A stretch of 64,000 nt of DNA, taken from NCBI GenBank assembly GCA_947085855.1, contig CAMTYB010000001.1:213788-277787 (forward strand), given 5' to 3'. Numbering within the stretch: position 1 is the stretch's first letter; every line of letters begins with the position of its first letter. The notes beneath the pieces were generated by a model. That model worked only from the letters and a program-made list of their open reading frames with translations, had not been told where the DNA came from and did not search any database. This stretch comes from an uncultured Candidatus Saccharibacteria bacterium. Its GTDB lineage: Bacteria > Patescibacteriota > Saccharimonadia > Saccharimonadales > 2-12-FULL-41-12. Shown here piece by piece: positions 6,637 to 64,000 of this stretch. Made by a program: the position numbers and the translations under genes.

Positions 6637-6657
6637 GCCATATTTGCAATTTTACTT

Positions 6658-6710
6658 ATTTTCACGCGAAGTATATTTTTTGCGACGTCCCCTCTCCTGC
6701 CCGTGAAAAT
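6658..6710. repeat. Inverted repeat ATTTTCACG / CGTGAAAAT with 35-nt spacer
   Basis: 9/9 complementary arms at 6658-6666 and 6702-6710. An AT-rich tract follows at 6711-6775. Confidence 0.45.
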
Positions 6711-6850
6711 TATTAAATTTTGACTTTTCGGTATTTTTATTTTTTATATATGTTTTTTTATTAATCCTATAAAACACACATGTGCGAACAAAAAACGAAC
6801 AACAAGGGGAGAACGGTCGGGGGATCTCTCGGTTATAGCTACCTCGCTAG

Positions 6851-11300: not shown

Positions 11301-11322
11301 TTGTTTTTAGTACCTTTCTCTA

Positions 11323-21096: not shown

Positions 21097-21104
21097 TAGC
21101 ACAG

Positions 21105-31707: not shown

Positions 31708-33315
31708 TCAGACGAGGGTTTTGATGAAGCCGTCAAACATTGGATGCGGGCGGTTTGGACGTGACTTGAATTCTGGATGAAATTGACTGGCCAAGAAGAA
31801 TGGATGGTCAGTTCCCTCAATCACCTCTACGAGATTGTTGTCCGGATTGATGCCAGTTGGCTTGATGCCCCAACTCTCGTACTGATCTCGATAAGAGTTA
31901 TTACACTCGTAGCGGTGGCGGTGGCGTTCGACGATTTCTGGCTCACCATAAACCTTTGCAGCAAGGCTGCCGGCTTCTAGACTACAGTTGTAATTGCCAA
32001 GGCGCATGGTACCACCAGTGTTCTCTTTACCCTTCTGGCCTTCCATAGTGTGGATGACTTGATTCTTACCCTTGGCATCAAGTTCAGTAGTTGTCGCGTC
32101 AGTTACGCCGTTATTGCGAGCTGCTGCTATGACGGCCATCTGCAAACCAAGGCACAAACCAAGATACGGTAGTTTCTCTTTCAGAGCATATTGAGCGGCA
32201 GTGATTTTGCCTTCAAGGCCGCGGGTGCCAAAGCCGCCAGGCACCACTATACCGTCGCAACCCTTTAGTACCGTAGCAATATCTGCATTCGGTGCTTCAA
32301 TTTCCTCAGCTTCAATCCATTTAATGGTCAGGTTGGTATTGTTCCAAAAAGCCGCGCTACGTAGGGCTTCAAATACAGACATGTACGTATCGGTGTTATC
32401 CATGTACTTAGCGACCACACCGACGGTAACCTCTTTATCAAAAGAAGTAGTCGCCTTCTTAACCACTTCGCGCCAATCACTCAGATCAGGCTTGGTGCTG
32501 CGTTCGCTCACGCCGAGCCTGTCGGCGATAACAGTGCCGAGGCCAGAGTCTTCGAGGGTCAGCGGGACTTCGTAGATACTTTTAGCATTTGGTAGCAAGG
32601 CGATTGCTCTTGAATCCACGCCACTAAACAAGCTGAGCTTCTGGATAACACTTTCGGACGCTTGCTGCTCGCTGCGTGCCACCAAAACATCAGGAACGAT
32701 ACCGAAGCCGCGCAGCTCGCGCACTGCATTCTGAGCCGGCTTAGTCTTCACTTCCTGGCTCGCACCAAGGAATGGCAAATAGACCACATGTACAAACATG
32801 CAGTGCTCACGACCGGTGTTAAAAGCAAATTCGCGAATCGCCTCGATAAAGCTGAGACCTTCATAATCGCCGACGGTACCACCGACTTCGATAATATGAA
32901 CGTCAAAACCTTCACCGGCGCGCTTAATTTCTTCCTGCATGGCCTGCGTAACATGCGGAATGTACTGCACGGTTTTGCCGAGATATTTACCGGCTCGCTC
33001 ATCAGCTAGCACCTTAGCCAAGACGCGACCGCTCATCAATGAGCTCGCCTGCGTCAGTTCTTCATCCAAAAAGCGCTCATAATGCCCGAGGTCTAGGTCG
33101 GTCTCGGCACCGTCTCTCGTCACAAAGCACTCGCCATGCTCAGCCGGATTAAGCGTACCGGCATCAGTATTGAGGTACGGGTCACATTTTTGGAGGTTAA
33201 CAGTTAGTCCGCGGGCTTTTAGCAGACGACCAATTGAGGCGGCCGTGATACCCTTGCCAACTCCTGACAAGACACCGCCGGTAACAAAAATATACTTAGT
33301 CTGCTGTTTTCCCAC
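31708..33315 (-). CDS. pyrG: CTP synthase
   Basis: TKYIFVTGGVLSGVGKG and the glutaminase triad region GLCLGLQ...HRHRYE. GTG 33315 is preferred, with AGAGGGAG SD 8 nt upstream. The ORF track extends to 33324. Confidence 0.95.
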   Translation of the reverse strand: MGKQQTKYIFVTGGVLSGVGKGITAASIGRLLKARGLTVNLQKCDPYLNTDAGTLNPAEHGECFVTRDGAETDLDLGHYERFLDEELTQASSLMSGRVLAKVLADERAGKYLGKTVQYIPHVTQAMQEEIKRAGEGFDVHIIEVGGTVGDYEGLSFIEAIREFAFNTGREHCMFVHVVYLPFLGASQEVKTKPAQNAVRELRGFGIVPDVLVARSEQQASESVIQKLSLFSGVDSRAIALLPNAKSIYEVPLTLEDSGLGTVIADRLGVSERSTKPDLSDWREVVKKATTSFDKEVTVGVVAKYMDNTDTYMSVFEALRSAAFWNNTNLTIKWIEAEEIEAPNADIATVLKGCDGIVVPGGFGTRGLEGKITAAQYALKEKLPYLGLCLGLQMAVIAAARNNGVTDATTTELDAKGKNQVIHTMEGQKGKENTGGTMRLGNYNCSLEAGSLAAKVYGEPEIVERHRHRYECNNSYRDQYESWGIKPTGINPDNNLVEVIEGTDHPFFLASQFHPEFKSRPNRPHPMFDGFIKTLV

Positions 33316-33377
33316 GCAGAACACTCCCTCTTCTCGTTTACTGACTGATTTTACCCTATTTTGCCGCTGTTGACCAG

Positions 33378-51023: not shown

Positions 51024-52520
51024 TTATAGTTTTACGTCGGGGTAAATTTTGCGGGTGGTTTCGTCGATTTCAGAGCGAAGTTGCGGGAACGGCACTCCTT
51101 CGCGGGCGGTAACACCTTCAAAAATCCAGAAAACACGCTCTGAATAGCCCCAGCCACAGGCTGGCGGCATACCGTATTCGAGCATTTCGACGTAGTCGAT
51201 GTCGAGCATCATGGCTTCGTCATCACCAGCTTCGCGCATCTTTTGTTGTTCGACAAAGCGTTCTAGCTGATCAATTGGATCATTGAGCTCCGAAAAGCCA
51301 TTGCCAAGCTCACTGCCAGCAATGACTGGTTGGAAGCGCTGGACGGTTTCAGGGCGATCTGGATTAGCCTTGGCGAGCGGACTAATAAAGAGCGGTGTGT
51401 TGACTAACCAAACCGGACCAGCCACGTCTTTGCGGATGTTTTTCCAGAGCTTGTCGATACCACGGGCTTTGTTGTCGGCCTTTTCAACTTCAAGTTTGTT
51501 GTCTTTGAGCGCTTTCTTGACCTGTTCGAGAGTACAGTCAAAGACATCAATGTCGTAATGCTTCTTGATAACTTCGGCGTAGTCCCACTCTTCCCAGTCT
51601 TTGCTGAGATCAACGTCAAATTTGCCAAGCTTGAACTGGAGAGTACCAAAAGTAGATTCGATAACATAGCGATACATTTGAGTCATCATTTCCATACCCT
51701 GACGCCAATCGGCGTAGGCCCAGTACCATTCCATGGCAACGTGTTCCGGCAGATGCTCGTCGGAGTAGTTTTCGTTACGGAAGCGCGGACCAACGTCATA
51801 AACGCGCTCAAAACCAGCGCCCAGCAAGCGCTTAAGTGGCAATTCGTGGCTAATACGCAGGTAAAAATCCTGATCAAGCGCATCCATGTGGGTTACGAAT
51901 GGATTGGCATCGGCACCACCAGTAGTGTGCTCAAGGACAGGTATGTTTATCTCTGTAAAACCAGCTTCGTCCAAGAACTGACGGGTAGCCCGCCAAAAGC
52001 GTGAACGGCGGTAAAAGCGCATCCTGACATCATCGTTAACGTTCATATCAACGTAGCGGCGGCGCAGACGCTCTTCTTTGTCGGTCAATTCAGTTGGAGT
52101 TGGCCGCAGAGCCTTAGTCAGCAGACGTAGCGTTTCAACCTGTACTGAGATTTCGCCGGTTTGAGTCTTGATAACCGGGCCGGTTACCTCGACAAAGTCG
52201 CCCGTGTCCAGTAGAGCGATGTCCTTGATAGCGAGTTCGCTGTTGCTGTAATCGGCTTCTTTGTCAGCAGTTTTCCAGAAGGCCTGCAAGTCGCCACCCC
52301 AGTCGCGGACAACTATAAAAGCAATTTTGCCAAATTTGCGGATAGATTTAACCTGGCCAGCGATGGTGACTGGTTTGTTTTCTAGCTCTTCGAAGTTTGT
52401 GCGAATGTAGCCGTTGCTGTGTGTGCGATGTGACTTGGCTGGGTACGGGTTAACGCCCAGCGCTTTCAGTTCTTCGAGCTTGCGCAGACGCTCATTACGA
52501 TAATCTTGTAGGGTTGCCAT
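51024..52520 (-). CDS. lysS: Lysine--tRNA ligase (class II)
   Basis: N-terminal OB anticodon-binding domain. Class II motifs FRNE(NYSDEH), GELGNGFSELNDP, GWGYS. ATG 52520 is preferred over TTG 52526. Confidence 0.92.
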   Translation of the reverse strand: MATLQDYRNERLRKLEELKALGVNPYPAKSHRTHSNGYIRTNFEELENKPVTIAGQVKSIRKFGKIAFIVVRDWGGDLQAFWKTADKEADYSNSELAIKDIALLDTGDFVEVTGPVIKTQTGEISVQVETLRLLTKALRPTPTELTDKEERLRRRYVDMNVNDDVRMRFYRRSRFWRATRQFLDEAGFTEINIPVLEHTTGGADANPFVTHMDALDQDFYLRISHELPLKRLLGAGFERVYDVGPRFRNENYSDEHLPEHVAMEWYWAYADWRQGMEMMTQMYRYVIESTFGTLQFKLGKFDVDLSKDWEEWDYAEVIKKHYDIDVFDCTLEQVKKALKDNKLEVEKADNKARGIDKLWKNIRKDVAGPVWLVNTPLFISPLAKANPDRPETVQRFQPVIAGSELGNGFSELNDPIDQLERFVEQQKMREAGDDEAMMLDIDYVEMLEYGMPPACGWGYSERVFWIFEGVTAREGVPFPQLRSEIDETTRKIYPDVKL

Positions 52521-52528
52521 TGCCAAGC

Positions 52529-52537
52529 ATTATAACA
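52529..52537 (-). promoter_or_regulatory. Extended -10 TGTTATAAT, 8 nt before the lysS ATG
   Basis: Reverse strand: ctcTGTTATAATgcttggcaATG. Confidence 0.5.
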
Positions 52538-52566
52538 GAGATAAAGCGTGAGCAATAATCGAGTTG

Positions 52567-53028
52567 TTAGGCTATTTTTGCAACTTTGTAGGTAGCAGTT
52601 TCAGCTGGGGTGGCGATCTCAACTTCTTCACCGAGTTGCTTGCCCATCAAGGCTTGGCCGATTGGTGATTCATCAGAAATTTTACCGTTGAGTGGATCAG
52701 CTTCGACGGTGCCAACAAGGGTGAATTGCTTGCTCTTACCGTTGCCTTTGAGCTCAACCTGGGAGCCAAGTTGGACTTTGTCGGTTTTGCCTTTTGGCTT
52801 GGCAATAACTTCGACGTTAGCCAAGATGTATTCGATTTCGGAAATACGCGACTCAAGCGTCACCTGCTCGTCTTTGGCAGCATGATATTCGGCATTCTCA
52901 CTTAAATCACCTTGTTCACGAGCGGTCTTAATGGCATCGGCGACGCCGGCTCGCTTAGAAACAAGGCCGTCTAGCTCGGCTTTTAGCTCATCGATGCCTT
53001 CTTGGGTTAAGTGGTATTGCTTTTTCAT
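52567..53028 (-). CDS. greA: Transcription elongation factor GreA
   Basis: LTQEGIDELKAELD...REQGDLSENAEYHAAKDEQ and the C-terminal FKBP-like domain. Confidence 0.9.
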   Translation of the reverse strand: MKKQYHLTQEGIDELKAELDGLVSKRAGVADAIKTAREQGDLSENAEYHAAKDEQVTLESRISEIEYILANVEVIAKPKGKTDKVQLGSQVELKGNGKSKQFTLVGTVEADPLNGKISDESPIGQALMGKQLGEEVEIATPAETATYKVAKIA

Positions 53029-53211
53029 GTCATGCTTCCTTTGCTTCGTTATGTTCGCGTAAACCCTCTCTCGCCCACGTTTCGTTTACATTCCTGTATT
53101 TCTGATGGTTTGATTCAGTTTACCTTTGATTTATAAAAAACTCAAACGCACCCGGTTTTGGCGAGTCAAATATATGATTTATCGACTCATTCTTACCATT
53201 TATGGTGTATT

Positions 53212-54462
53212 TTATGCTTGTAGATGCGTAATGAGGCTGTTTTGTGGCACTAATTCAGCCGTCTCGCTGGTGCGAGCTTTGACCTCTACAGATGATTGTT
53301 CGAGCGTCTTAGAACTGATTACGACCCGATACGGCATTCCGAGTAAATCAGCGTCAGCAAACTTAGTTCCAGGCCGAACTGCGCGATCATCATACAACAC
53401 CGAGATACCGGCTGCCTGTAAGACTTCGTACAGTTTTTCTGCTTCGCTTATGACTTTTTCGTCCTCGCCGACCGTCACTAACTGCACCAACGCTGGGGCA
53501 ACCGCTTTTGGCCAGGCCAAGCCCTTATCGTCGGCAAAATGCTCCGCCAACACGCCCACCAAGCGACTCACGCCAATGCCATAACAGCCCATAATAATCT
53601 GTTGTTCTGCCCCGTCTTCGTCGGTGTAGGTCAAACCAAGTGCATCCGTATACTTGGTGCCGAGTGAAAAAATATTACCGACCTCTACCGCCCGCTTTTC
53701 AACCAAGTCGTCCTTCTTCAGGCCAATTTGCTGGAGCACTTCGTCTGTAAAAACTTCTTTGTTAATGGCAATTTTCTTGGCTTCATCAACATAAATTGTA
53801 TCTTCGCCAACATGGCTCAGTGTTTGGAATTCGTCACTGAATTGACTAAAAATGCCACCGCTGGCAAAAGTGCGATAGGTGATGTCGCCAATGCCAAGTC
53901 GTTCGTAGACTCGATGGTAGGCCTCGGCCAATTCTTCATACTGCTGCTTATGCTCATCTTCAGTGCGTGAAAAGGTATATAGGTCTTTCATGAGGAATTC
54001 GCGACCGCGCATGATGCCACTTTTAGCACGCAACTCGTTACGGAATTTACTTTGAATCTGATACACCTTAAGTGGCAGATCCTTGTACGAATTCACGTAC
54101 GGCTTAAGTGAATCAACCACCGGTTCTTCGTGCGTCAGGCCAACGCCGAGTTCGGTACCGTTGGCTAATTTGGTTTTGAACCAGTTATCAACTTTGGCAT
54201 CATCCCAACGATCAGTTAGCTCCCAGATATCCTTTGGCTGCAGCACGGACATCCAGACTTCTTGACCACCAACTTTGTCCATCTCGTCACGCACGATATC
54301 GGCCACATTATTAAGAACTTTTAATCCAAGCGGCAGATAGGCATACACACCAGCCATTTCTTTGTGAACATAGCCGCCCTGAATAAGTAGCTGCGCATTG
54401 CGCGCCGTTTCGTCAGCCGGAACTGATTTGCTGGTTTTTGTGAATAATTTTGAAAGTCTCAT
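53212..54462 (-). CDS. proS: Proline--tRNA ligase, bacterial-type N-terminus but lacking the INS editing insertion
   Basis: MRLSKLF...PADETARNAQLLIQGGYV, motif 2 FRNELRAKSGIMRGREFLMKD, motif 3 GCYGIGVSRL. Only ~130 aa separate motifs 2 and 3. Confidence 0.9.
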   Translation of the reverse strand: MRLSKLFTKTSKSVPADETARNAQLLIQGGYVHKEMAGVYAYLPLGLKVLNNVADIVRDEMDKVGGQEVWMSVLQPKDIWELTDRWDDAKVDNWFKTKLANGTELGVGLTHEEPVVDSLKPYVNSYKDLPLKVYQIQSKFRNELRAKSGIMRGREFLMKDLYTFSRTEDEHKQQYEELAEAYHRVYERLGIGDITYRTFASGGIFSQFSDEFQTLSHVGEDTIYVDEAKKIAINKEVFTDEVLQQIGLKKDDLVEKRAVEVGNIFSLGTKYTDALGLTYTDEDGAEQQIIMGCYGIGVSRLVGVLAEHFADDKGLAWPKAVAPALVQLVTVGEDEKVISEAEKLYEVLQAAGISVLYDDRAVRPGTKFADADLLGMPYRVVISSKTLEQSSVEVKARTSETAELVPQNSLITHLQA

Positions 54463-54470
54463 CGGGCTCC

Positions 54471-54476
54471 ATTGTA
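54471..54476 (-). promoter_or_regulatory. -10 TACAAT, 8 nt before the proS ATG
   Basis: Reverse strand: aaggTACAATggagcccgATG. No clear -35. Confidence 0.35.
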
Positions 54477-54555
54477 CCTTAGCCAGAGTAGAGACGCTAG
54501 TTATTGCAAGCTCAGATTTGTTGGCTTATGCTGGTCAGCACCCTGAGAGTATGAA

Positions 54556-56376
54556 TCATACTCGAAAAAATTCTTCATCAGCAGTAGGCGTTTGGATATG
54601 GTCGGCTGACGACTCATCATGACGTCGAAGCCGAATGCCTCGCTTACCAAACCCAACCGGCTGTGCGTAGCTATGATTAAATGATGGCGCGTTACGGTGA
54701 CTAACGTTGCCACGGCCTTTGTTCGTAACACCCATACTTGTGTATGCACCACCATCACAAATTTGTAGCATCGAACACATGGCTGCAAAACCGTTTATTT
54801 CCTCATCGGATACCCGAGACCTTATATATTCTCTCAGTGTGTCTTTGGCTAGCTTATACATGGCTGCCTTGGCTGATTGACCAGCCCCACGAATATTGAT
54901 ATCAAAAGCCAAATCAGCACCTTCGCCAATTATTGCCAGTATCATTTTTCTATCGCGAACCGGCAAACCTACCTCTTTCAGAAAACCGTTGGCGTATATT
55001 TGATTAAAGTCCTTTTGATTGTGAATTTCACCTTTTATAGCTGCCGCTGGTTTGCCGATATCGTGCGCTAAAATAGCCAGCCTCATGGGGGCAAGCATTT
55101 GCACCGGCAAGTTATCTGCAAAGTTTTCATCAAAGTTTTGGAGTACTGTTTCTGTATGCTCAGCTAAGCTAAACTTCTCCCAATTGCCAGTATCTTCTTT
55201 AAAAATGTGCCCAAAACTAGTAAGTTGACTTGCTAGCTCTACAATTTTTTCTGGCTTCACGTGAGGGTCATCCTGGATTGCCCTAAGAAGCGGCAAACGC
55301 GTATCCGTACCTTCCTGCTCACGTGTTTTTTCTGTAATTTCATCGAGTCGTGCAGCAAATTGACCAACCTGTCGCCACGTCGACTGGCGCTGAGCTTTTG
55401 CTTGTTCTTCAGTTGCCACTTTTTCAAGATCAAAGAGTGATATTGCAATCATCTTTCGATTGATAGTTGCAGAATAAATAGGCTGCTGAACACCGACAAT
55501 ACCTGCTTCTCGAAAGTATCGTTGCACGTATTCCATATTAAGCGGTAGCTCGACCTGCCCTTCATTGACAAGATTAATAACGTCAGTATGAATGTCTCTT
55601 TGCGAACCTAGTAAACGGCCGGCCGCATATGACGGTGCAATCTGCATTACCTGGCGTGCATTGTAGGCACTAGCAAGCTGGAGCGCAACGCTTTCGTCGA
55701 TGCCAGCTTCTTCTGCATACAATGACACCTCTTCTTGCTTGATTCTCGTGGGCAGACGTCGATTGATCACTTCTTTAAAAGGCTTAAAGGCATGTCGATC
55801 GTCGAAACCGAGTGGAGATCCTTCAGATACGCCTATGGCTAACTTATTTAGAGCACCTTTATATTTTTCTAAAGTTACCTCGTCCAATGTTTGAACATCA
55901 AAATTGAGATCAATGACAACTGCATCCGGATTGACCGACACAATATCATGGATTTCCCCTTGGTATTTACGTGCGATAGACTGCCACAAATCGTCCTTTT
56001 CGACTTCAGACATCGGCCATTTAGACGCGTTTGCTTCTCTATCGCGCATTGCTTCAATATATTCTGGATATATAAATTCTCTGCCGCGACTCCTAGCAAA
56101 TTCTAGGGCGTTATCACGCGAGCCTGTGTACAGTGTTGGGCGCGTATTAACGTTGAAATTTCCATTATCGTTGCGGCCATTCGCAAATACCGGGTTTACG
56201 GTCCATGGCTCATTAGCATGATTCTCGCCAACGCGACCATGAAATGTCTCCAGTTCAGACAATGGAGCCAGAAGACCTATCTCTTTAAGTGTCTCAATCG
56301 CCCTGAATCTTTCGGCATCTTCGAGACTTCTAGAATGTTCGGCGCGGGTCTGTAGCTGTTCTGACATAGTATGCAT
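54556..56376 (-). CDS. Large hypothetical protein (606 aa) with C-terminal HD-domain
   Basis: HD signature LAEHTETV...RLAILAHDIGKP...D. The N-terminal ~400 aa are unrecognised. No signal peptide or TM. Confidence 0.55.
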   Translation of the reverse strand: MHTMSEQLQTRAEHSRSLEDAERFRAIETLKEIGLLAPLSELETFHGRVGENHANEPWTVNPVFANGRNDNGNFNVNTRPTLYTGSRDNALEFARSRGREFIYPEYIEAMRDREANASKWPMSEVEKDDLWQSIARKYQGEIHDIVSVNPDAVVIDLNFDVQTLDEVTLEKYKGALNKLAIGVSEGSPLGFDDRHAFKPFKEVINRRLPTRIKQEEVSLYAEEAGIDESVALQLASAYNARQVMQIAPSYAAGRLLGSQRDIHTDVINLVNEGQVELPLNMEYVQRYFREAGIVGVQQPIYSATINRKMIAISLFDLEKVATEEQAKAQRQSTWRQVGQFAARLDEITEKTREQEGTDTRLPLLRAIQDDPHVKPEKIVELASQLTSFGHIFKEDTGNWEKFSLAEHTETVLQNFDENFADNLPVQMLAPMRLAILAHDIGKPAAAIKGEIHNQKDFNQIYANGFLKEVGLPVRDRKMILAIIGEGADLAFDINIRGAGQSAKAAMYKLAKDTLREYIRSRVSDEEINGFAAMCSMLQICDGGAYTSMGVTNKGRGNVSHRNAPSFNHSYAQPVGFGKRGIRLRRHDESSADHIQTPTADEEFFRV

Positions 56377-56398
56377 TTGTTTTTATAACTTTAGTGTC

Positions 56399-56427
56399 AT
56401 TATAGCACAAATATGTGTTTTACGCAA
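56399..56427 (-). promoter_or_regulatory. Promoter TTGCGT-17-(TGc)TATAAT upstream of the HD-domain gene
   Basis: Reverse-strand hexamers at 56427-56422 and 56404-56399. It shares the 15-mer ATTTGTGCTATAATG with the promoter at 59256. Confidence 0.55.
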
Positions 56428-56455
56428 GTTTTCTTATCTTATGGAAGGGTCTGTG

Positions 56456-57268
56456 TTAAGTCCGAAAAACAAATAAGGCCACGAAGGCGAGGCCATTCTT
56501 GAGCGCGTGCACTACTATGCCGGCCCACAACGAGCCGGTTTTGACTCGTAAGCCGATTAAGATCACCGACAGAACAAAGGTGTCTATAGCCGCTACATAC
56601 AGAGGCGGTGCGCCTAAACCGAGCTGCAAATGAGCCAAGCCAAACAAGGTGCTCGCTACCAGCGCAGCCACCACTGGGCCCATTTTTGTGCGCAGACCAC
56701 TATATAAGAAGCCGCGGATCATAATTTCTTCAACAATCGGTGGCAGTATCACCAAGCACACAAAGACCAAGCCGAGCTGCCACACACCATTGGCTGATTC
56801 AAAACCAATTTGCTGCTCTTGCTCTAGATTAATGCTTGGTAGTACCTTGTCGACAGCAGCCAGTACAGCCGCTGCTGCCAAAAAATAACCAACAAAGGCC
56901 CCTACGGCATATAGTATGTCGGACGGCACTATACCCCGCCCCAAGCCAATTTTGGCCCAGGTCACACGGTAGCGCTTCATGTACCAGACGATGACGCCGA
57001 GCATCGTCAAGTAAGCTACCGCCGTAGTCGAAAATTGACCAACTGTTGTATCGCTAATAACGTCAAAGACACGCTCCGAATTCATGCCAGTCACCAAAAT
57101 GAACATGCCGAGCACAAGGCCGAGCAAGAACTGAGGCGACATGTAAGCTACGATCGTCACGACAACTGCACTGACTGGGCCAAAAGATAGGCTCAGTCGG
57201 CTCATGAGTCGCAGGAGCCAGCGGTCTTTTTTGGATATTTTTTGGCTAGAAGAATCGTCGGACATCAA
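56456..57268 (-). CDS. CPBP (CAAX/Abi) family intramembrane metalloprotease
   Basis: Motifs PIVEEIMIRGFLY, FGLAHL, VHALKN. Polytopic. Confidence 0.7.
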   Translation of the reverse strand: MMSDDSSSQKISKKDRWLLRLMSRLSLSFGPVSAVVVTIVAYMSPQFLLGLVLGMFILVTGMNSERVFDVISDTTVGQFSTTAVAYLTMLGVIVWYMKRYRVTWAKIGLGRGIVPSDILYAVGAFVGYFLAAAAVLAAVDKVLPSINLEQEQQIGFESANGVWQLGLVFVCLVILPPIVEEIMIRGFLYSGLRTKMGPVVAALVASTLFGLAHLQLGLGAPPLYVAAIDTFVLSVILIGLRVKTGSLWAGIVVHALKNGLAFVALFVFRT

Positions 57269-58349
57269 CTACGGTGATGAGGACAAACAGAGCCATCAAG
57301 GCTACAAACCCTGTGCCGTGAATTGCCTCTTCTTTCTCTTTTGTTAATGGTTTTTTGAGCGCTCTAAACAGCAGCAGGACAAATAGTCGGCCACCATCGA
57401 GAGCAGGAATTGGCAGCACATTCATGATTGCGAGTGACAACGACAAAATAGCGATTACAAACAAGATGAAGTTAGCGCCAATCTTGCTACCACGCTCGAG
57501 GATTACGGCGATGCCCACGGGCCCGGACACCTGCTCGCTGGCTGTTTTGGTGTCGCCCTTGACTAGACTACTGATTGCCGTGCCAAGCCCTTTAAACGTC
57601 AGCTGCGTCAACTGACCGGTTAGACCAACTGCCACCACTGGTGCTGACCACGTACTGCGCTGCAATTGGATACCGTCTTGCATCGGTGCTACGCCGATGT
57701 AGCCATTACCTTTGTTTTCTTGGTTAACTTGCATCTGTGCGGTATAGGTTTGACCATCGTGCATATAGACAATTGGTATGGTCTGACCAGCATATCGCTT
57801 AGCGATTTGGCCAACTTGATCGGTTTTAGTTATTGGTGTGTTGGCAATTGAGACGATCTCATCGCCTTCCTTGAGTCCGGCTTTGCCGGCCGGTTCGTTG
57901 CTTTCAACGTCACCAGCGACAATGTTAGCTTCACGCGTCACCTTCGTGTCGCTCGCTACGGTAAACTGGTTATCTATAAGTTTTGGCATGCCTACAAGCG
58001 CCAAAATCGTGAACATGGCGAGCGCCACAATCAAGTTCATGACCACCCCGGCCAACATGACTTTTACTTTGACGTTTAGCGGCGCAGCACCAAAGCTACC
58101 GGGTCGCCTATCGGCATCGTTTTCGCCTTTTAAGCGCACAAAACCGCCGAGCGGTAGTAGATTTATGGTGAAAAGGAATTTGCTCTTTTTGGTACGGACT
58201 TTCTTACCCCACACCTTTGGCGGAAAACCAATACCAAATTCTTCAACCTCTACGCCACCACGACGAGCGGCCACAAAATGACCCCACTCGTGTACAACCA
58301 CGAGTCCAATAAACAGAATTACTGCCACAATTAAAAGAAATACTGCCAT
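57246..58349 (-). CDS. rseP: RIP site-2 metalloprotease RseP (M50) with PDZ
   Basis: HEWGHFVAARRGG, a PDZ segment (AGKAGLKEGDEIVSI), and NLLPIPALDGG. Confidence 0.85.
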   Translation of the reverse strand: MAVFLLIVAVILFIGLVVVHEWGHFVAARRGGVEVEEFGIGFPPKVWGKKVRTKKSKFLFTINLLPLGGFVRLKGENDADRRPGSFGAAPLNVKVKVMLAGVVMNLIVALAMFTILALVGMPKLIDNQFTVASDTKVTREANIVAGDVESNEPAGKAGLKEGDEIVSIANTPITKTDQVGQIAKRYAGQTIPIVYMHDGQTYTAQMQVNQENKGNGYIGVAPMQDGIQLQRSTWSAPVVAVGLTGQLTQLTFKGLGTAISSLVKGDTKTASEQVSGPVGIAVILERGSKIGANFILFVIAILSLSLAIMNVLPIPALDGGRLFVLLLFRALKKPLTKEKEEAIHGTGFVALMALFVLITVVDVRRFF

Positions 58350-58358
58350 CTACCCCTC

Positions 58359-58367
58359 ATTTTACCA
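58359..58367 (-). promoter_or_regulatory. Extended -10 TGGTAAAAT, 9 nt before the rseP ATG
   Basis: Reverse strand: ctaTGGTAAAATgaggggtagATG. Confidence 0.45.
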
Positions 58368-58389
58368 TAGCTAGCGAACTGTAACCGGG

Positions 58390-58953
58390 TTAAACGGTCA
58401 TGATTTCGGTCTCTTTGGCCTTGGCCTTGGAGTCCAGAGCAGCTCGTTGCTTGCTCATAGCATCATCAATTTGCGTAACGCAGCGTTTGTGCTCGTCTTC
58501 GCTCATAGCTTTGTCTTTTTTGGCTTGATCCAGCTCTTTCAAAGCATCGTGACGGACACCGCGCATAGCAATGTTAGCGTCTTCGACTTTTTCGCCCAAC
58601 TGTTTAACAATCTGTCGGCGGCGCTCCTCGGTCAGTGGCGGGATTGGAATGCGAATCAGCCGACCATCGTCGCTCGGGTTCAAGCCAAGGCTTTGATTGT
58701 CGCGAATTGCGCTTGCAATGGTTTGTACCGTATTTGGATCAAACGGTGAAATTTGCAGCAACTGCGCCTCTGGTGCGCTGATGGTTGCCACTTGGATCAA
58801 TGGCATTTGTTGACCATAGGCCTCAACCGTCACGCCATCGAGCATGCTCGGGTGTGCGCGACCAGTTCGGAGTTTTTTAACTTCGTCATCGAAGCGCGAC
58901 ACAGCAGCTTCAAACTTAGTTTGGGCAGTTGAAATAACGTCTTGTGGATTCAT
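58390..58953 (-). CDS. frr: Ribosome recycling factor
   Basis: RTGRAHPSMLDGVTVEAYG...PLTEERRRQIVKQ. Confidence 0.95.
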   Translation of the reverse strand: MNPQDVISTAQTKFEAAVSRFDDEVKKLRTGRAHPSMLDGVTVEAYGQQMPLIQVATISAPEAQLLQISPFDPNTVQTIASAIRDNQSLGLNPSDDGRLIRIPIPPLTEERRRQIVKQLGEKVEDANIAMRGVRHDALKELDQAKKDKAMSEDEHKRCVTQIDDAMSKQRAALDSKAKAKETEIMTV

Positions 58954-58961
58954 ATAGATTT

Positions 58962-58967
58962 AGTATA
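58962..58967 (-). promoter_or_regulatory. -10 TATACT, 8 nt before the frr ATG
   Basis: Reverse strand: gcgcTATACTaaatctatATG. No clear -35. Confidence 0.35.
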
Positions 58968-58980
58968 GCGCACTTCCGGC

Positions 58981-59247
58981 TTAGCATGGATAGTGCAAGT
59001 TTTCACGGATGCGCTGGAGTGCTTTGTGGATAAATCCTAAGCCACTACCTCTCGCTTGGTCTCGACGTTGCGCCTGGGCTTCCTCGGTCAACATAACGAC
59101 GGTAGCAATGTGTCCTTCACCCACTTCTAGCTGGCCGGCAACTACAACTTCATCTTCGCCCCATCCCATTACGTCCATGGTGCGACGATCTTTATCTGTA
59201 AGCTCCGGTTGCGGCGCTGTCTCGCCTGAAAATTTATCCTCACTCAT
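58981..59247 (-). CDS. Hypothetical small acidic protein (~88 aa)
   Basis: ORF with its own TAGACA-17-TATAAT promoter. ATG 59247 lies 8 nt after the -10. No family recognised. Confidence 0.4.
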   Translation of the reverse strand: MSEDKFSGETAPQPELTDKDRRTMDVMGWGEDEVVVAGQLEVGEGHIATVVMLTEEAQAQRRDQARGSGLGFIHKALQRIRENLHYPC

Positions 59248-59255
59248 AAACATAC

Positions 59256-59284
59256 ATTATAGCACAAATTCTAGAGTTTGTCTA
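59256..59284 (-). promoter_or_regulatory. Promoter TAGACA-17-(TGc)TATAAT, 8 nt before ATG 59247
   Basis: Reverse-strand hexamers at 59284-59279 and 59261-59256. Confidence 0.55.
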
Positions 59285-59298
59285 TTGTGAAGAGTGCC

Positions 59299-60645
59299 CT
59301 ACTGCTCAGACTGGACGTATTTTTTAGTTTCGTTGTCAACAAATCTTTTGATACGTTTTTCGGCACGACCAGAAATTCTTCCTTCTGCTGCTGCAGTAGT
59401 TGCTTGTACATACATGCCGTCAAGCAAAGACCGCACAAACTCAGGATGAGTCTGTACTTTTGGAATATCTGGATTAGCAACAGCTATGTTTAATTTAGTT
59501 GCCATGCTTTTTATTTCATTGCTGAGTTGTTTTCTATCTGATCGCCGAACAACGCGCCACGCCAATTCTTCTGATTTATCTGGCACGGTTCCGTGTACTG
59601 ACATTCTTATAAGTAGCTCTTTCTTGAGCGCCTCAGACGGCGACAAAGAACCTGGATACGCGCCAGCAGTCAGTATTTCACCAACTAAAAGGCGATCCCG
59701 CCCAAGGTCTGGATCGCCTACCTTCAAATTGACACGATAAAGAATTTGACGGGCTACTTCCGGCAATGCTTTATCGAAAGCTTCTCTAGATTTTATTGAG
59801 AGATCGTGCTGCAAAGTCTCATCTAAGGAAATGATGCCCTGTCGCTGAAGAACTAAACCCAATTCAGGAACTCTTTCAAACTCGCCAGATTTCAGGAAAT
59901 GCTCTGTTATAGCCTGTGGGCCAACCAAACATTTTACGCCCAGGCTATCGACTATGCGGGGCCCACCTGGATCAAACAAGCGCGCAGGATACTCAGACAT
60001 ATCTACGCCACGACCCGTAACTGAGTCGTTATCCCATTTTGGTTTTACCGGCCGAGCAAAGCGCAGGAAGTCTCCTGTCTTGCTGTCGGCAAACCCCACT
60101 TCGTCGGCGTCTATGGCAGACAGATCTGCTTCCATTCTTAGCTTATCTAACTTTGCGCCTGCGACCACGAAGGATCTACTATTGCCACTTACCAATACGC
60201 TCCTCTGCCTATCCTCGCCATTTTCCATACTCTGGATCACCTGAACACCTTGGCTTGCTGCCCAGTCAGGATTACTACCATTCAGCACCTGGTTGATAAC
60301 CATCCAGGCAATTGCCTTGCTGCCAAGTAGCCAAATCGTGCCGCCATCAGCAGCGATATATTCTCGCTTGTATGGAATGTCGAGGCGATGGGCAGCTTCT
60401 TGGCGAGCCAGTTTTTTGTTCCCCAAAAGATCTGCTTCCAGCAAAGTCTCCTTGTCGAAAGTGTCAATAATTTCTGGATTGAATTCGTCGTCGCCAGCAA
60501 TTATTGCCTCGAGGTGTTTCCGTTCACTCACCCCCATATCAGTAAGTTCCGCTTGCTTGCTTGCAATTCCGTTCTCGCCTCCATACCGACGAGTTAGAAA
60601 CTCAAAATCCACACCCATTTCTTCAAATACTGTGGTAGTGCTCAT
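59299..60645 (-). CDS. Large hypothetical protein (~448 aa)
   Basis: Long ORF between tsf and frr. AAGGAG lies 11 nt upstream of ATG 60645 (the ORF track extends to 60711). No motif, signal peptide or TM recognised. Confidence 0.5.
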   Translation of the reverse strand: MSTTTVFEEMGVDFEFLTRRYGGENGIASKQAELTDMGVSERKHLEAIIAGDDEFNPEIIDTFDKETLLEADLLGNKKLARQEAAHRLDIPYKREYIAADGGTIWLLGSKAIAWMVINQVLNGSNPDWAASQGVQVIQSMENGEDRQRSVLVSGNSRSFVVAGAKLDKLRMEADLSAIDADEVGFADSKTGDFLRFARPVKPKWDNDSVTGRGVDMSEYPARLFDPGGPRIVDSLGVKCLVGPQAITEHFLKSGEFERVPELGLVLQRQGIISLDETLQHDLSIKSREAFDKALPEVARQILYRVNLKVGDPDLGRDRLLVGEILTAGAYPGSLSPSEALKKELLIRMSVHGTVPDKSEELAWRVVRRSDRKQLSNEIKSMATKLNIAVANPDIPKVQTHPEFVRSLLDGMYVQATTAAAEGRISGRAEKRIKRFVDNETKKYVQSEQ

Positions 60646-60755
60646 TTTCCAGAAAACTCCTTGTTTTTGAATAGTACCATATACCATAAACCTTGTAAAA
60701 AACCATGACAAGTAAGCCCATTGGACGGATTGTTGGGCTAAATTTAAGAAGCAGT

Positions 60756-61358
60756 CTATTCGATGACTTCGCCGATAGCCAGGCGGCTAAAGCGGCGGAC
60801 CACGATGTTTTCACCAAGCTTGGCAATGCCTTCTTTGATGAAGAGATCGACTGTTTGGTCGGGGTTTTTGACGAATGGCTGGTCGAGTAGGCAGCGTTCG
60901 GCAAAGTATTTTTTGACCATGCCACTGACAATTTGGTCGAGCATGTTGTCTGGCTTGCCTTCGGCTTTGGCTTTTTCGGTAAATTCGGCGGTTACTTTTT
61001 CGGTTTCTTCGGCTGGAATATCGTCAGCACTAACATAGAGCGGACTAGCAGCTGCAATGTGCATAGCAATGTCTTTTACAAGGTCGGTGAATTGTTCGTT
61101 ACGAGCCACAAAGTCAGTTTCGCAGTTCACCTCTAATACGACGCCAATGCGGCTGTCATGATTGTATGTACTAACGATGCCGGCACGGGCTTCGCGTTCA
61201 CCACGCTTTTCGGCCTTAGTTAGGCCTTTCTTGCGCATAGCTTCGAGAGCTTTATCAAAATCGCCGTTGGCTTCGACGAGGGCTTTTTTGGCATCAGTAA
61301 TGCCAACGCCCGTTAGGCCGCGGAGGCGCTTAATTTCATCAATTGAGATATCTGCCAT
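60756..61358 (-). CDS. tsf: Elongation factor Ts (short form)
   Basis: UBA-like N-terminus IKRLRGLTGVGITDAKKALVEANGDFDKALEAMRKKG. Confidence 0.9.
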   Translation of the reverse strand: MADISIDEIKRLRGLTGVGITDAKKALVEANGDFDKALEAMRKKGLTKAEKRGEREARAGIVSTYNHDSRIGVVLEVNCETDFVARNEQFTDLVKDIAMHIAAASPLYVSADDIPAEETEKVTAEFTEKAKAEGKPDNMLDQIVSGMVKKYFAERCLLDQPFVKNPDQTVDLFIKEGIAKLGENIVVRRFSRLAIGEVIE

Positions 61359-61385
61359 ATCTATTCCCTTCCTAAATTCTTAAAA

Positions 61386-62129
61386 TTATTCGGCTTTATC
61401 GGTTTTGTCGGCTTTAGCTTCTGGTTGTTTTTGTTGAGCTTTGCCAACATTGATAGCTTCTACAAAGTAATCGATGATCAATTTAACAGATTTGATTGCA
61501 TCATCGTTAGCTGGTATGACGTAGTCTACCAAGCTTGGATCGGCGTTGGTGTCGACAATAGCGATAACTGGGATACCAAGCTTACGAGCTTCACGCACTG
61601 CGTTGATTTCGGCCACAACATCCACCACGATCATTGCACCGGGGCGATTAGCCATGTGCTTGATACCGCCGTACATGTGGTTCATGTCATCGATTTCTTC
61701 TTGGAAACGCTGGACTTCGAGCTTGTTGTACTTAGCTTCGAGCGCACCTGAATCCATGCGTTGTTCGATGTCTTTTAGATGCTTAATGCGACCATTCATG
61801 GTTGCAACGTTCGTTAGCATACCGCCAACCCAACGTTCTACAACAAATGGCATGCCGGTAGATTCACCAGCTTCACGGACAGCATCCTTAGCTTGGCGTT
61901 TAGTACCAACCAGTAGAACTTGGCGGCTAGAGGCAACCGTTTTGACAACAAAAGCGAGCGCTTCATCAAGGCCTTCAACGGTTTTGGTCAAGTCTATGAT
62001 GTGACTGCCGTCTCGTTTGCTGTGAATGTATTGAGCCATTTTTGGGTGCCAGCGACTGGTCTTGTGACCAAAGTGAGCACCGGCTTCTAATAGTTTTTTA
62101 ATATCAACGTCTACAGTAGCTTGCGCCAT
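61386..62129 (-). CDS. rpsB: 30S ribosomal protein S2
   Basis: LLEAGAHFGHKTSRWHPKM, VLLVGTKRQA, DTNADPSLVDYVIPANDDA. Confidence 0.95.
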   Translation of the reverse strand: MAQATVDVDIKKLLEAGAHFGHKTSRWHPKMAQYIHSKRDGSHIIDLTKTVEGLDEALAFVVKTVASSRQVLLVGTKRQAKDAVREAGESTGMPFVVERWVGGMLTNVATMNGRIKHLKDIEQRMDSGALEAKYNKLEVQRFQEEIDDMNHMYGGIKHMANRPGAMIVVDVVAEINAVREARKLGIPVIAIVDTNADPSLVDYVIPANDDAIKSVKLIIDYFVEAINVGKAQQKQPEAKADKTDKAE

Positions 62130-62232
62130 GTGTCGTCTTCCTTTCTCTTCGCTATCGAGGACCGGTCAGAGTTTCTACACGAAACATAAGCCAGAGGAAC
62201 ACTTCTCGATGCTGCTTAATGATAGTTACCCT

Positions 62233-62261
62233 ATTTTAACAGAGGCCAGTCTTTTTTGCAA
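62233..62261 (-). promoter_or_regulatory. rpsB promoter TTGCAA-17-TAAAAT
   Basis: Reverse-strand hexamers at 62261-62256 and 62238-62233. The ~97-nt leader has nested helices and GAAAGGAAG SD. Confidence 0.6.
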
Positions 62262-62269
62262 CCTGACTA

Positions 62270-62298
62270 TTGCCCATTTACTCCTTTCACGATATAAT
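62270..62298 (+). promoter_or_regulatory. rpmE promoter TTGCCC-17-TATAAT, 8 nt before the ATG
   Basis: Hexamers at 62270-62275 and 62293-62298. ATG at 62307. Confidence 0.6.
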
Positions 62299-62306
62299 AC
62301 TGCGAT

Positions 62307-62702
62307 ATGAAACAAGGTATTCACCCGAAAAACTATCGTCCTGTAGTGTTCCAAGATCTTTCGAATGGCACTATGTTTTTGACGCAGTCAACTGCTACTA
62401 CCGATGAAACCATCAAGCACGAAGATGGCAACGAGTATCCATTGGTAAAAATCCACATCAGTAGCGCCTCACATCCCTTCTTTACCGGCCAAGAAAAGCT
62501 GGTTGACATCGAAGGTCGCGTTGACAAGTTTAAAGCTCGATCAGAAGCTGCCGCCAAGAAGCGCGAAGAAGCTGCTCAGCGACTTGCCGCCAAGAAGCAA
62601 AAGACATCTGCCAAGCCAGCAAAAGCTGCCGACTCAGAAGCCAAGGCCGACTCTAAGACCGAAGCCAAAGCTGAACCAGTCAAAGAAGCTCAAGAAGCCT
62701 AG
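62307..62702 (+). CDS. rpmE: 50S ribosomal protein L31 (type B, no CxxC) with Lys/Ala-rich C-terminal extension
   Basis: [10 protein letters not shown]...[20 protein letters not shown], followed by ~55 aa of K/A/E-rich tail. Confidence 0.85.
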
Positions 62703-62723
62703 TCTACCGGACAAACCAACACT

Positions 62724-62752
62724 ACGAGCCGAGTTATCTTGGCTCGTTTTTA
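62724..62752 (+). terminator. Intrinsic terminator after rpmE
   Basis: ACGAGCC, loop gagttatctt, GGCTCGT, followed by TTTTT. Confidence 0.75.
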
Positions 62753-62794
62753 ATGGCATTTCTTGTATGCCGATTTTTCGGAAAATAACAGTGG

Positions 62795-62803
62795 TGATAT
62801 ACT
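62795..62803 (+). promoter_or_regulatory. Extended -10 TGATATACT, 8 nt before the prfA ATG
   Basis: ggTGATATACTagtttgatATG. Confidence 0.45.
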
Positions 62804-62811
62804 AGTTTGAT

Positions 62812-63867
62812 ATGAATCCTAAAGAACAAGCCCTGCGCGAGGAGTTGACTGCGCTTCAAAAACAACTTGAAGACCCAGCTATTTACAGCGATAAACGTTA
62901 TCCAAAACTTGCTCGACGTCAAAATGAATTAGAAACTATCGTTGCTCTTTTTGACGAAAAGCAAAAGTTGCAGACCGAACAACAAGCCGCTGAGCAGCTT
63001 GGTAAAGACGCCGATGCCGACATGGCCGCTATGGCGCAGGAGGAACTGACTGCTATTGCCGGGCAGCTCGAATCTACGACTGCTAAGCTCGAGGAACTTT
63101 TGACGCCAAAAGACCCGAACGATGAGCGTAATGTCGTCATGGAAATCCGAGCGGCTGCTGGTGGCGATGAAGCAAGCTTATTTGCTGGCGAACTCTACCG
63201 TATGTATAGCCACTACGCCGAAGATAATGGTTTCAAAACTGTCCACGTTAGCGATAGTCCCAGCGAAGCTGGTGGCTTTAAAGAAGTTGTGTTCGAAATT
63301 AATGGTGACTTTGCTTACCGGCAACTGCGTCTAGAAGCCGGCGTTCATCGCGTTCAGCGGGTACCAGCTACTGAGTCTCAGGGTCGCGTCCATACCAGCA
63401 CCGTGACCGTAGCAGTCATGCCCGAAGCCGAAGAAGCTGACATTGAAATCGCGCCCAACGATTTGCGCGTAGACGTCTTCCGTGCTGGTGGCCACGGCGG
63501 CCAAAGCGTCAACACCACCGACTCAGCCGTCCGCATCACCCACATCCCGACTGGCACTGTTGTGACCAACCAAGATGAGAAGTCTCAGATCAAAAACAAA
63601 GAAAAAGCCATGAGCATCCTCCGCTCTCGCTTACTCCAATCAAAAATTGAAGCTGAGCAAGAAAAATTATCGCAAGCTCGTAAGAAACTAATCGGTTCTG
63701 GTGATCGTTCTGAGAAAATTCGCACCTACAACTTCCCGCAAGATCGCATCACCGACCACCGCATCGGCTACTCACGCAGTAACATCCCAGCCGCCCTAAA
63801 CGGCGACATTAACGACATTATAGAAAAACTCCATGACTACGAGCGCACGCTCCTCAGCGAAGAATAA
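62812..63867 (+). CDS. prfA: Peptide chain release factor 1
   Basis: PxT tripeptide (VPATESQGR) and GGQ ([19 protein letters not shown]). Confidence 0.95.
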
Positions 63868-64000
63868 GATCACCATTGCCGAGTGGCTAATCGATAGTAT
63901 GGTGACCCTGCAGAAAGCCGGTATCGCCGAGCGTGGCCGTACCGACTGTATCGTTCTCTTATGCGACGCTTTAGGCAAAGATAAATCATGGGTTCACACT
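63833..64000 (+). CDS. prmC: Release-factor glutamine methyltransferase PrmC, N-terminal fragment (runs off right edge)
   Basis: The frame from ATG 63833 overlaps the prfA end by 35 nt. It reads ...[43 protein letters not shown], which is typical of a PrmC N-domain and of the position after prfA. Confidence 0.45.

Follow-up and report, generated by a model that had tools for sequence, protein, structure and literature searches.

A probable accessory-gene insertion and a small orphan gene between tsf and frr in a Saccharibacteria genome

The genes around the bacterial elongation factor EF-Ts are canonically arranged as rpsB-tsf-pyrH-frr-uppS-cdsA-rseP. In the stretch of DNA analysed here (64,000 nucleotides of a Saccharibacteria (TM7) genome, referred to throughout as the window) rpsB, tsf, frr and rseP follow one another in this order on one strand. 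Unlike the canonical cluster, however, the pyrH slot lacks pyrH in 77 of 77 relatives, and the window's clade has no uppS between frr and rseP, where about 43 relatives carry one. The tsf–frr region holds two minus-strand ORFs, here termed X448 and Y88 (Table 1), which a preliminary description of the sequence had singled out as unrecognised genes of 448 and 88 aa; both ORFs were confirmed. The same gene order was recovered, at 100 % identity, in the independent Logan assembly ERR4904396, and the locus is therefore not an assembly artefact.

Chromosomal integration hot spots resemble this locus in having conserved flanks (here tsf and frr) around a spacer whose content differs by lineage, in that X448 is present in one species and missing from close relatives with intact flanks, and in the mildly atypical composition of X448. 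They differ from it in that the X448 insert is a single gene on ~1.47 kb, with no flanking integrase, tRNA or clear repeats, so that its mechanism of insertion has to be presumed. A further parallel is the cargo of integrative and mobilisable elements (serine recombinase, Replic_Relax PF13814, TraG/TraD), as two of the three X448 homologues with known context lie near a Replic_Relax gene, one of them in a tRNA-Lys/serine-recombinase island and the other beside a coupling-protein fragment; in contrast, X448 of the window has no such element genes nearby and matches no element family. Y88, for its part, is akin to the orphan small leaderless genes, being confined to one genus-level clade, apparently under purifying selection and predicted from its sequence to be devoid of a leader. 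We favour the reading, to which we would assign a probability of roughly 0.7, that X448 was acquired horizontally as an accessory gene, that Y88 is an unrelated, real small gene and that pyrH was never displaced. As such, the locus would be an ordinary case of accessory-gene insertion next to a small orphan gene, and nothing ties X448 or Y88 to translation.

Table 1. Features of the tsf–frr region and its flanks, in window positions
Feature	Position	Strand	Description
tsf (EF-Ts)	60756..61358	-	Upstream conserved flank; Pfam EF_TS, E=1e-37
X448 upstream region	60646..60755	-	110 bp; promoter-like sites 60711-60683 and 60699-60671; GGAG 60660-60657
X448	59299..60645	-	448-aa ORF, ATG start
Inserted DNA (approximate extent)	59285..60755	-	~1.47 kb; bounded closely by the tsf stop and the Y88 -35
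Y88 promoter	59256..59284	-	TAGACA, 17 nt, TG-extended TATAAT
Y88	58981..59247	-	88-aa ORF
frr -10-like region	58954..58967	-	TATACT 58967-58962, read from sequence; candidate leaderless promoter
frr (ribosome recycling factor)	58390..58953	-	Downstream conserved flank; Pfam RRF, E=6e-55
rseP	57246-58349		Beyond frr, same strand

In four close relatives, represented by short metagenomic contigs of unassigned strains, tsf is followed by 44–67 bp, a Y88 homologue and frr, with no X448 between them; two of the contigs (L085 and L086) also reach rseP. The tsf, frr and rseP genes of the window are 87–90 % identical to those of these relatives at the nucleotide level. As X448 is absent from all four despite their intact flanks, it appears to be a recent insertion of ~1.47 kb, and for X448 the earlier proposal of a lineage-specific insertion was borne out; the gene is likewise absent from the 77 distant relatives. 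The preliminary description had allowed that genes both absent from all close relatives and poorly expressed might be recent junk, and the first of these features, absence, was found for X448 (present in none of four) but not for Y88 (present in four of four). Two expectations of horizontal acquisition were observed for X448, namely its absence from syntenic close relatives and the presence of homologues on mobile elements. Around the insert there is an imperfect junction repeat, AATAGAC...AAATTT (60760-60740 and 59286-59266; 15 of 21 positions, AATAGAC exact), although this direct repeat could be of chance origin. The flanks of X448 in the window lack a recombinase, a transposase, a clear target-site duplication and a tRNA; ARAGORN detected no tRNA genes across the entire 64 kb, and an Rfam scan of 52000-64000 returned nothing at E ≤ 0.1.

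We envisage that a ~1.47-kb cassette, consisting of X448 with its own TG-extended -10 element and Shine–Dalgarno sequence, entered the 44–67 bp that separate the stop codon of tsf from the Y88 promoter, and that it would have done so after the split from the relatives that are 87–90 % identical in the flanking genes. The route may have been recombination between the conserved flanking core genes or, alternatively, illegitimate recombination, and the presence of dprA in the window (942-1640) is consistent with a DNA uptake step. Saccharibacteria G1 genomes are known to keep high synteny, with individual genes gained and lost by recombination (PMC7427843). The locus may offer a gene-by-gene record of how an ultra-reduced, highly syntenic genome takes up accessory genes one at a time, in the short spacers that precede leaderless promoters of core genes.

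In an exhaustive phmmer search of 1.84 billion representatives of protein clusters (covering about 15 billion proteins) we found four full-length X448 homologues of 446–450 aa, which align end to end at 28–34 % identity with E-values of 4e-25 to 4e-44. Together with X448 itself this makes five full-length members of the family in the representatives searched, and the family would seem very rare; an alignment of the five contains 51 invariant residues. A word-indexed search of 5.8 billion protein clusters returned only X448 itself, and the family profile recovered already known members only. Similarly, tblastn of X448 against phage (INPHARED) and plasmid (PLSDB) collections gave no match, and its profile found no relatives in IMG/VR or JGI metagenome contigs.

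Family searches of X448 against Pfam, NCBIfam, PADLOC, PHROGs and PDB sequences were blank. For X448 and its four homologues nothing was obtained from Pfam/NCBIfam even at E ≤ 10, the PADLOC-DB 2.0 HMMs gave no hit to the five members at E ≤ 1, and searches of PDB sequences for X448 and Y88, with individual sequences as well as profiles, produced insignificant hits only (acyl carrier protein, E=0.17; FliG, E=0.06). X448 has a pI of 5.5 and lacks any TM or signal-like segment (maximum Kyte–Doolittle 19-residue mean 1.27), and it shows no motif of a nuclease, NTPase, TIR, Sir2 or other effector, in agreement with the initial impression of a protein without motif, signal peptide or TM. An AlphaFold model built from the five-sequence alignment (pLDDT 70.5) consists largely of helices and has a small beta region; Foldseek comparison of this model with PDB and BFVD gave no match at E ≤ 0.001, the best hits being generic helical repeats, although with a model of only moderate confidence the missing fold match is weak evidence. 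Profile and structure searches of the kind proposed at the outset, run against Pfam, NCBIfam, PDB and BFVD, assigned X448 to no known family and revealed no UMP kinase.

Three of the homologues could be placed in a genomic context. One (P0005, locus L084) lies in an island with the order tRNA-Lys, serine recombinase, Replic_Relax, Type IIG restriction-modification enzyme (PADLOC E=6e-247), HTH-SocA_Panacea, DUF2130, X448 homologue, Xre-type HTH and a DrmC/MkoC-like PLD nuclease; a zeta-toxin-like kinase is also present, and no att-type repeat closing the island was found. In the second context (L082) a Replic_Relax homologue (pairwise E=1e-11) precedes the X448 homologue, which is followed by a TraG/TraD coupling-protein fragment. 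In the third (L083) the homologue sits between the 3' end of uvrA and a DedA gene, and the 2.8 kb available contain no mobile-element gene. Recognisable element genes therefore stand beside two of the three homologues, with Replic_Relax at a distance of 0.4–7 kb; each of these two is the nearest relative of the other (44 % identity), so that they effectively represent one element lineage. From these contexts we consider that X448 would be mobile-element cargo, encoding a soluble cytoplasmic protein that works alone, and that its role would most likely be in defence, anti-defence or element maintenance rather than in translation. As a mobile-element-linked, uncharacterised family with no detectable relatives, it would be of interest only where the defence or mobile-element biology of Saccharibacteria is at issue.

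A narrower proposal is that X448 acts by itself in anti-phage defence or abortive infection, as a new protein of this kind. The island of P0005, shared with Type IIG restriction-modification, HTH-SocA/Panacea, PLD nuclease and zeta-toxin-like kinase genes, points in this direction, as does the fact that X448 stands alone, under a promoter of its own, in a variable hot spot. Defence genes accompany the family in this one context only, however, with none in the window, L082 or L083; moreover, PADLOC matched none of the five members, X448 has neither effector motif nor fold match, and an accessory role in conjugation or replication would suit the neighbours in L082 and L084 (Replic_Relax, coupling protein) equally well. 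We therefore regard this proposal as possible, though rather improbable. The same tentative standing applies to a broader conception, in which X448 would represent a family that is confined to Saccharibacteria, is carried by mobile elements and has a fold not seen in PDB or BFVD, X448 itself acting as a solo, novel defence, anti-defence or element-competition protein, with the tsf–frr spacer as one landing pad for gene exchange between reduced genomes.

The longest frame of X448 opens at TTG 60711; the ATG at 60645 was favoured as the start because the N-termini of the four homologues and a conserved upstream AAGGAG agree, the GGAG of the window lying 11 nt before this ATG. Each gene had been credited with a promoter of its own in the preliminary description, and whilst the one given for Y88 was exact (59284-59256, 11 of 12 positions), the TTGTCA-17-TATGGT given for X448 was misplaced by ~11 nt and matches 9 of 12 consensus positions. 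By itself this site is statistically not significant, as six sites of the 9/12 type were observed in the 4-kb region versus 4.3 ± 1.8 in shuffles. An overlapping TTTACA-17-TACTAT with TG appears to be the better match to the TGnTAnnnT element that, followed by AAGGAG, also precedes the L082, L083 and L084 homologues. Judging from this shared arrangement, the 110-bp upstream region would have come in together with X448. The composition of the gene is mildly atypical (GC3 0.42 versus a window mean of 0.49; synonymous-codon score z -1.6), a deviation of <2 SD.

Were X448 a non-functional remnant of a decayed mobile element, in the course of being lost, its solitary position with no element genes nearby, its absence from every relative, its slightly poor codon usage and its weak promoter match (9/12) would all be accounted for. 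Against this stand a frame that is intact at full length (448 aa versus 446–450 aa in the homologues) and the retention of the conserved N-terminus, -10 element and Shine–Dalgarno sequence, as well as of the 51 family-invariant residues, the last being true by definition since X448 is among the five aligned sequences. That the genomes of Saccharibacteria are reduced, with a tendency to lose DNA that is not in use, likewise argues against a remnant, and we consider it distinctly unlikely. Gene loss in Saccharibacteria has been noted (PMC7427843).

Y88 starts at ATG 59247, which is conserved in the relatives, whereas ATG 59253 is not, and specifies a soluble protein whose pI of 4.9 confirms the acidic character ascribed to it at the outset. 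Its homologues in the four close relatives share 77–85 % amino-acid identity and always lie between tsf and frr, with dN/dS values of 0.09–0.24 and indels in whole codons. On the strength of these dN/dS values Y88 is taken to be a real gene, and the substitution pattern indicates purifying selection. No match was found in Pfam, NCBIfam, PADLOC or PHROGs, and no significant one among PDB sequences; the structural model (pLDDT 64) had no PDB match at E ≤ 0.001. A Y88 profile found no relatives in JGI metagenomes and no distant ones among the small ORFs in the tsf–frr gaps of other genera. By these searches Y88 would be a taxonomically restricted orphan known only from one genus-level clade, within which alone it keeps its tsf–frr position, although it may well have distant homologues beyond their reach. 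It may thus serve as a clean case of a young, selected small gene that is predicted to be leaderless.

Across Saccharibacteria, 80 loci keep prfA, L31, rpsB, tsf, frr, rseP, a CAAX protease gene and proS, and tblastn of X448, Y88 and a 606-aa ORF against them gave no match. Contrary to the premise that X448 and Y88 occupy a pyrH slot in a frozen rpsB-tsf-pyrH-frr block, pyrH was found between tsf and frr in none of the 77 relatives. In 45 of these the gap is 17–177 bp and contains no ORF ≥ 70 aa; in the remaining 32 it spans 230–1703 bp and holds mutually unrelated ORFs, one of which encodes a trypsin-like protease. Because these 32 relatives hold unrelated ORFs there, the spacer is best described, from gene content, as a phylum-wide variable hot spot with no frozen slot, and since pyrH is missing from this position throughout the phylum (77 relatives examined) it would have been displaced by neither X448 nor Y88. 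The 606-aa ORF was compared with X448 and is unrelated to it, and a 436-aa ORF in the tsf–frr gap of another locus (L026) was tested and is not homologous. On the far side of frr, the window has neither uppS nor cdsA before rseP, as had been noted, frr and rseP being 43 bp apart (measured between tblastn match ends); cdsA is unlikely to lie there in the relatives, because their gaps fit uppS only. For a gene in the 'pyrH slot' of Saccharibacteria, position is therefore meaningless, the slot being empty or variable across the phylum, and the annotation of genes in this spacer should not draw on their having tsf and frr as neighbours.

These observations bear on the suggestion that X448, Y88 or both are lineage-specific ribosome- or translation-associated factors in the pyrH slot, which we judge to be very improbable. 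X448 and Y88 are read in the same direction as tsf and frr, and no terminator is predicted after tsf or X448, making co-transcription possible; in addition, Y88 holds the same position in all four known relatives. The latter is uninformative, however, because the whole block is syntenic at 87–90 % nucleotide identity, and X448 is missing from every close and distant relative. As its homologues occupy unrelated contexts, some on mobile elements, the position of X448 beside translation genes is considered incidental; the slot itself contains pyrH in none of the 77 relatives, and the spacer of other lineages carries unrelated cargo such as the trypsin-like protease. An origin of X448 as an EF-Ts paralogue was also considered, on account of a weak hmmsearch match to one tsf (13 bits), and rejected when hhalign, run with the X448 family alignment against 20 Saccharibacteria EF-Ts sequences, returned a probability of 0.3 %. 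PyrH is about 240 aa long. The idea of X448 as a UMP kinase (PyrH) that has diverged strongly, or as some other nucleotide kinase, suggested by nothing other than its position in what is the pyrH slot of typical bacteria, can effectively be dismissed given twice the length of PyrH, a mostly helical model with a small beta region, no amino-acid-kinase (PF00696) or other Pfam/NCBIfam match for the five members at E ≤ 10, and a tblastn search with E. coli PyrH (an approximate query) that was blank in the window and 85 loci.

With regard to the signals downstream of the insert, the Y88 promoter (TAGACA-17-TATAAT with a TG extension) is conserved in all four close relatives, and the remainder of the spacer diverges. 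Its -10 element (TGcTATAAT) has its end 8 nt ahead of the ATG and no Shine–Dalgarno sequence is present; the promoter is thus predicted to be strong and placed for leaderless translation, and Y88 would be expressed from it as a leaderless mRNA. Within the promoter spacer lies a palindrome, ACAAAyT-N4-AATTTGT (59264-59281), that is unique in the window, and its operator-like form suggests regulation. The TATACT upstream of frr ends at the same 8-nt distance from its ATG, is conserved in three of the close relatives (L085, L086 and L088) and is likely to be a separate leaderless promoter for frr. Such geometry is common in the window, where a -10-like hexamer ends 6–9 nt before the ATG of 15 of 61 genes, at exactly 8 nt in nine of the 15 (Y88 and eight others), and where these hexamers are positionally enriched.

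Two unrecognized ORFs of 448 aa (X448) and 88 aa (Y88) lie between tsf and frr, as the preliminary description had correctly stated. Both encode acidic, soluble proteins with no hydrophobic segment, and neither gave a match in Pfam, NCBIfam, PADLOC, PHROGs or the PDB sequences. The same locus junctions were found at 100 % identity in an independent Logan assembly. As set out below, X448 was acquired recently, stands alone in the window and belongs to a rare protein family linked to mobile elements.

Layout of the gene block around X448 and Y88 (window coordinates)
Feature	Position	Strand
rpsB	61386-62129	minus
tsf	60756-61358	minus
X448, 448-aa ORF	59299-60645	minus
Y88, 88-aa ORF	58981-59247	minus
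frr	58390-58953	minus
rseP	57246-58349	minus
CAAX-type protease	56456-57268	minus
Z606, 606-aa ORF	54556-56376	minus
proS	53212-54462	minus

Relatives were collected by a scan with the frr protein, which returned 80 loci, mostly from Saccharibacteria/Saccharimonadia, with RRF identities of 53-71 %. The order prfA, L31, then rpsB, tsf, frr, rseP, CAAX protease and proS was kept in all of these loci. Among the 77 relatives scored for the tsf-frr gap, 45 had 17-177 bp there and no ORF of ≥ 70 aa; in the other 32 the gap measured 230-1703 bp and held ORFs related neither to one another nor to X448 or Y88, including a trypsin-like protease in one locus (L057) and others judged by eye to be RHH-type or four-helix-bundle-like. 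With a length of 17-1703 bp and contents that are unrelated between lineages, the spacer is a variable hot spot, and not part of the frozen translation-factor cluster that had been proposed. The accompanying suggestion that the two ORFs had taken the place of pyrH also fails: pyrH is absent from this slot in the relatives across the phylum, and X448 and Y88 therefore did not displace it. A tblastn search with an approximate E. coli PyrH query, to be taken as a lead only, returned no match, neither for the window nor for 85 Saccharibacteria loci with ~1.2 Mb of sequence. The window does contain pyrG (CTP synthase; 31708-33324, minus strand), despite the lack of a detectable pyrH in the window or those 85 loci.

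Between frr and rseP, uppS (Pfam Prenyltransf, E=2e-76) was present in ~43 of 74 relatives. This gap is empty in the window, its close relatives and ~25 others, bearing out the reported absence of uppS from this position. Two loci, L010 and L014, have a PRPP synthetase here, and other genes occupy the gap in L005, L021, L023 and L026. Judged by size, gaps of ~730 bp have room for uppS only, which makes cdsA unlikely there.

The recent arrival of X448 is seen from four close relatives (short metagenomic contigs L085-L088) that carry Y88 without X448, and in which the tsf stop and Y88 are only 44-67 bp apart. As tsf, frr and rseP in these relatives are 87-90 % identical to those of the window (dS 0.5-1.0), the insertion of X448 postdates the split of these lineages; the inserted segment comprises X448 with its 110-bp upstream region (~1.47 kb in total), placed between the tsf stop and the Y88 -35 element. 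The idea of a lineage-specific insertion thus holds for X448, which is absent from close relatives, but not for a conserved slot, as the spacer varies phylum-wide. At the junctions, an imperfect repeat (AATAGAC...AAATTT, 15/21 positions, at 60760-60740 and 59286-59266) may represent microhomology or chance, and no recombinase, transposase or tRNA was found near X448 in the window. Its GC3 of 0.42, against a mean of 0.49 (SD 0.054), and its poor synonymous-codon score (z = -1.6) are compatible with a foreign origin but are no proof of one. Saccharibacteria genomes have been described as highly syntenic, with individual genes gained or lost by recombination (PMC7427843), and the X448/Y88 locus matches this published picture of high synteny plus single-gene gain and loss.

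An exhaustive phmmer search of 1.84 billion representatives recovered four X448 homologues of 446-450 aa, which align over their whole length, with identities of 28-34 % (E-values 4e-25 to 4e-44). The five-sequence alignment has 51 invariant columns and is best conserved over the N-terminal 40 residues; on these grounds X448 belongs to a real, albeit extremely rare, protein family. An AlphaFold2 model built from this alignment (pLDDT 70.5, pTM 0.62) is helical at both ends, as a bundle at the C-terminus, around a small centre of mixed alpha/beta structure in which residues 189-233 form a disordered loop. Foldseek comparison of the model with PDB and BFVD gave no match at E ≤ 0.001. Nothing speaks for the role in translation that had also been raised: hmmsearch gave a weak similarity to EF-Ts, but this was lost in profile-profile comparison (probability 0.3 %), and X448 was rejected as an EF-Ts relative.

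The genomic contexts of the homologues are unlike that of the window. On contig L084, which is probably from Saccharibacteria, as its MraY is 54 % identical to that of the window, homologue P0005 is at a distance of ~9 kb from a tRNA-Lys gene, whose 3' end is overlapped by a serine recombinase gene next to it. The region 797-12257 of this contig encodes Replic_Relax, a Type IIG restriction-modification enzyme (PADLOC E=6e-247), HTH-SocA_Panacea, DUF2130, an Xre-type HTH protein, a PLD nuclease and a zeta-like kinase, and constitutes a putative integrative island next to the tRNA-Lys; an att repeat was looked for and not found. On L082, homologue P0002 sits between a homologue of the L084 Replic_Relax (pairwise E=1e-11) and a TraG/TraD coupling-protein fragment, and on L083, P0004 is located between the 3' end of uvrA (read by eye) and a DedA-family gene. 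As P0002 and P0005 are mutually closest (44 % identity), the mobile-element link of the family effectively represents one element lineage. No conserved partner gene was found beside the family across the homologue contexts. The best reading of X448 is as mobile-element cargo acting alone, for which defence, anti-defence or element maintenance would be the most likely class of role. The remaining value of the locus is X448 as a protein family without detectable relatives.

Y88 is a young orphan gene under selection, and no copy is known outside this genus-level clade. Its homologues form three protein clusters with 77-85 % amino-acid identity, found on the four contigs, and are immediately flanked by tsf and frr in every case where flanks are visible; at this relatedness, the position of Y88 beside frr is uninformative. 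Its indels are whole codons, and its dN/dS against the orthologues is 0.09-0.24; the values for tsf, frr and rseP are 0.01-0.04. The AlphaFold model (a helix, two strands and two helices) is of low confidence (pLDDT 64) and gave no fold match.

The N-terminus of the X448 homologues, MS..(R/V)FE(E/K/N)(M/L)GVD, fits translation from the ATG at 60645, but not from the TTG that precedes it. A TGnTAnnnT motif followed by AAGGAG precedes X448 and its L082 and L083 homologues, and is less clear in L084; the window counterparts are TTTACA-17-TACTAT with TG (60699-60671) and GGAG at 60660-60657. The promoter previously assigned to X448, TTGTCA-17-TATGGT, is present (60711-60683), but with 9/12 matches does not exceed background in a promoter scan. 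The one assigned to Y88 at 59284-59256 was confirmed as TAGACA-17-TGcTATAAT (11/12 matches plus TG extension), and is near-invariant in the four relatives while the remainder of the spacer is divergent. The conserved Y88 start is the ATG at 59247, in agreement with the 88 aa first given; an upstream ATG at 59253 is not conserved in L085-L088. Inside the promoter spacer is a palindrome, ACAAAyT-N4-AATTTGT (59264-59281), which occurs once in the window and has conserved arms and a variable centre among the four relatives. It resembles an operator, and as such points to regulated Y88 expression.

In the stretch 59248-59261 the Y88 -10 element ends 8 nt before the ATG, with no Shine-Dalgarno sequence, and in 58954-58967 frr has the same 8-nt geometry (TATACT at 58967-58962); we infer that each would have its own leaderless-type promoter. 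The same geometry was seen at L31 (upstream of 62307), prfA (62812) and proS, and leaderless-like -10 placement also for 51024-52526 and 19771-21102. When 61 window genes were scanned within 60 nt of the ATG for -10-like hexamers (≥ 5/6 matches to TATAAT), one ended 6-9 nt before the ATG in 15 (exactly 8 nt in nine), and any other distance occurred at most once. This suggests, from sequence, that about a quarter of the window genes may be transcribed as leaderless mRNAs, which would be common in this organism. Several ORFs begin with TTG or GTG when read at full length; for these, -10 placement favours an ATG further downstream as the real start.

Z606 (GC3 0.38) is a second species-specific insertion like X448: L085 and L086 lack it at the corresponding place between the CAAX protease and proS. 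Z606 and X448 are unrelated. The sole feature recognized in Z606 is a weak HD/Cas3''-like motif (aa 403-442, E=2e-4 to 9e-4). The Z606 promoter (56399-56411) shares an exact 13-mer, TTTGTGCTATAAT, with that of Y88 (0.13 chance matches expected). L085 has an extra 234-aa gene (5764-6468) between L31 and rpsB relative to the window/L001, and three unknown genes (1380-3217) as against one in the window between the trypsin-PDZ protease and prmC; hence several spacers in the block differ between species. Elsewhere in the window, a GDSL-lipase/acylhydrolase gene (29976-31526, minus strand) has a GC of 0.605 and a GC3 of 0.72 (window means 0.49 and 0.49), the latter > 4 SD off the mean, and probably came from a donor of high GC content.
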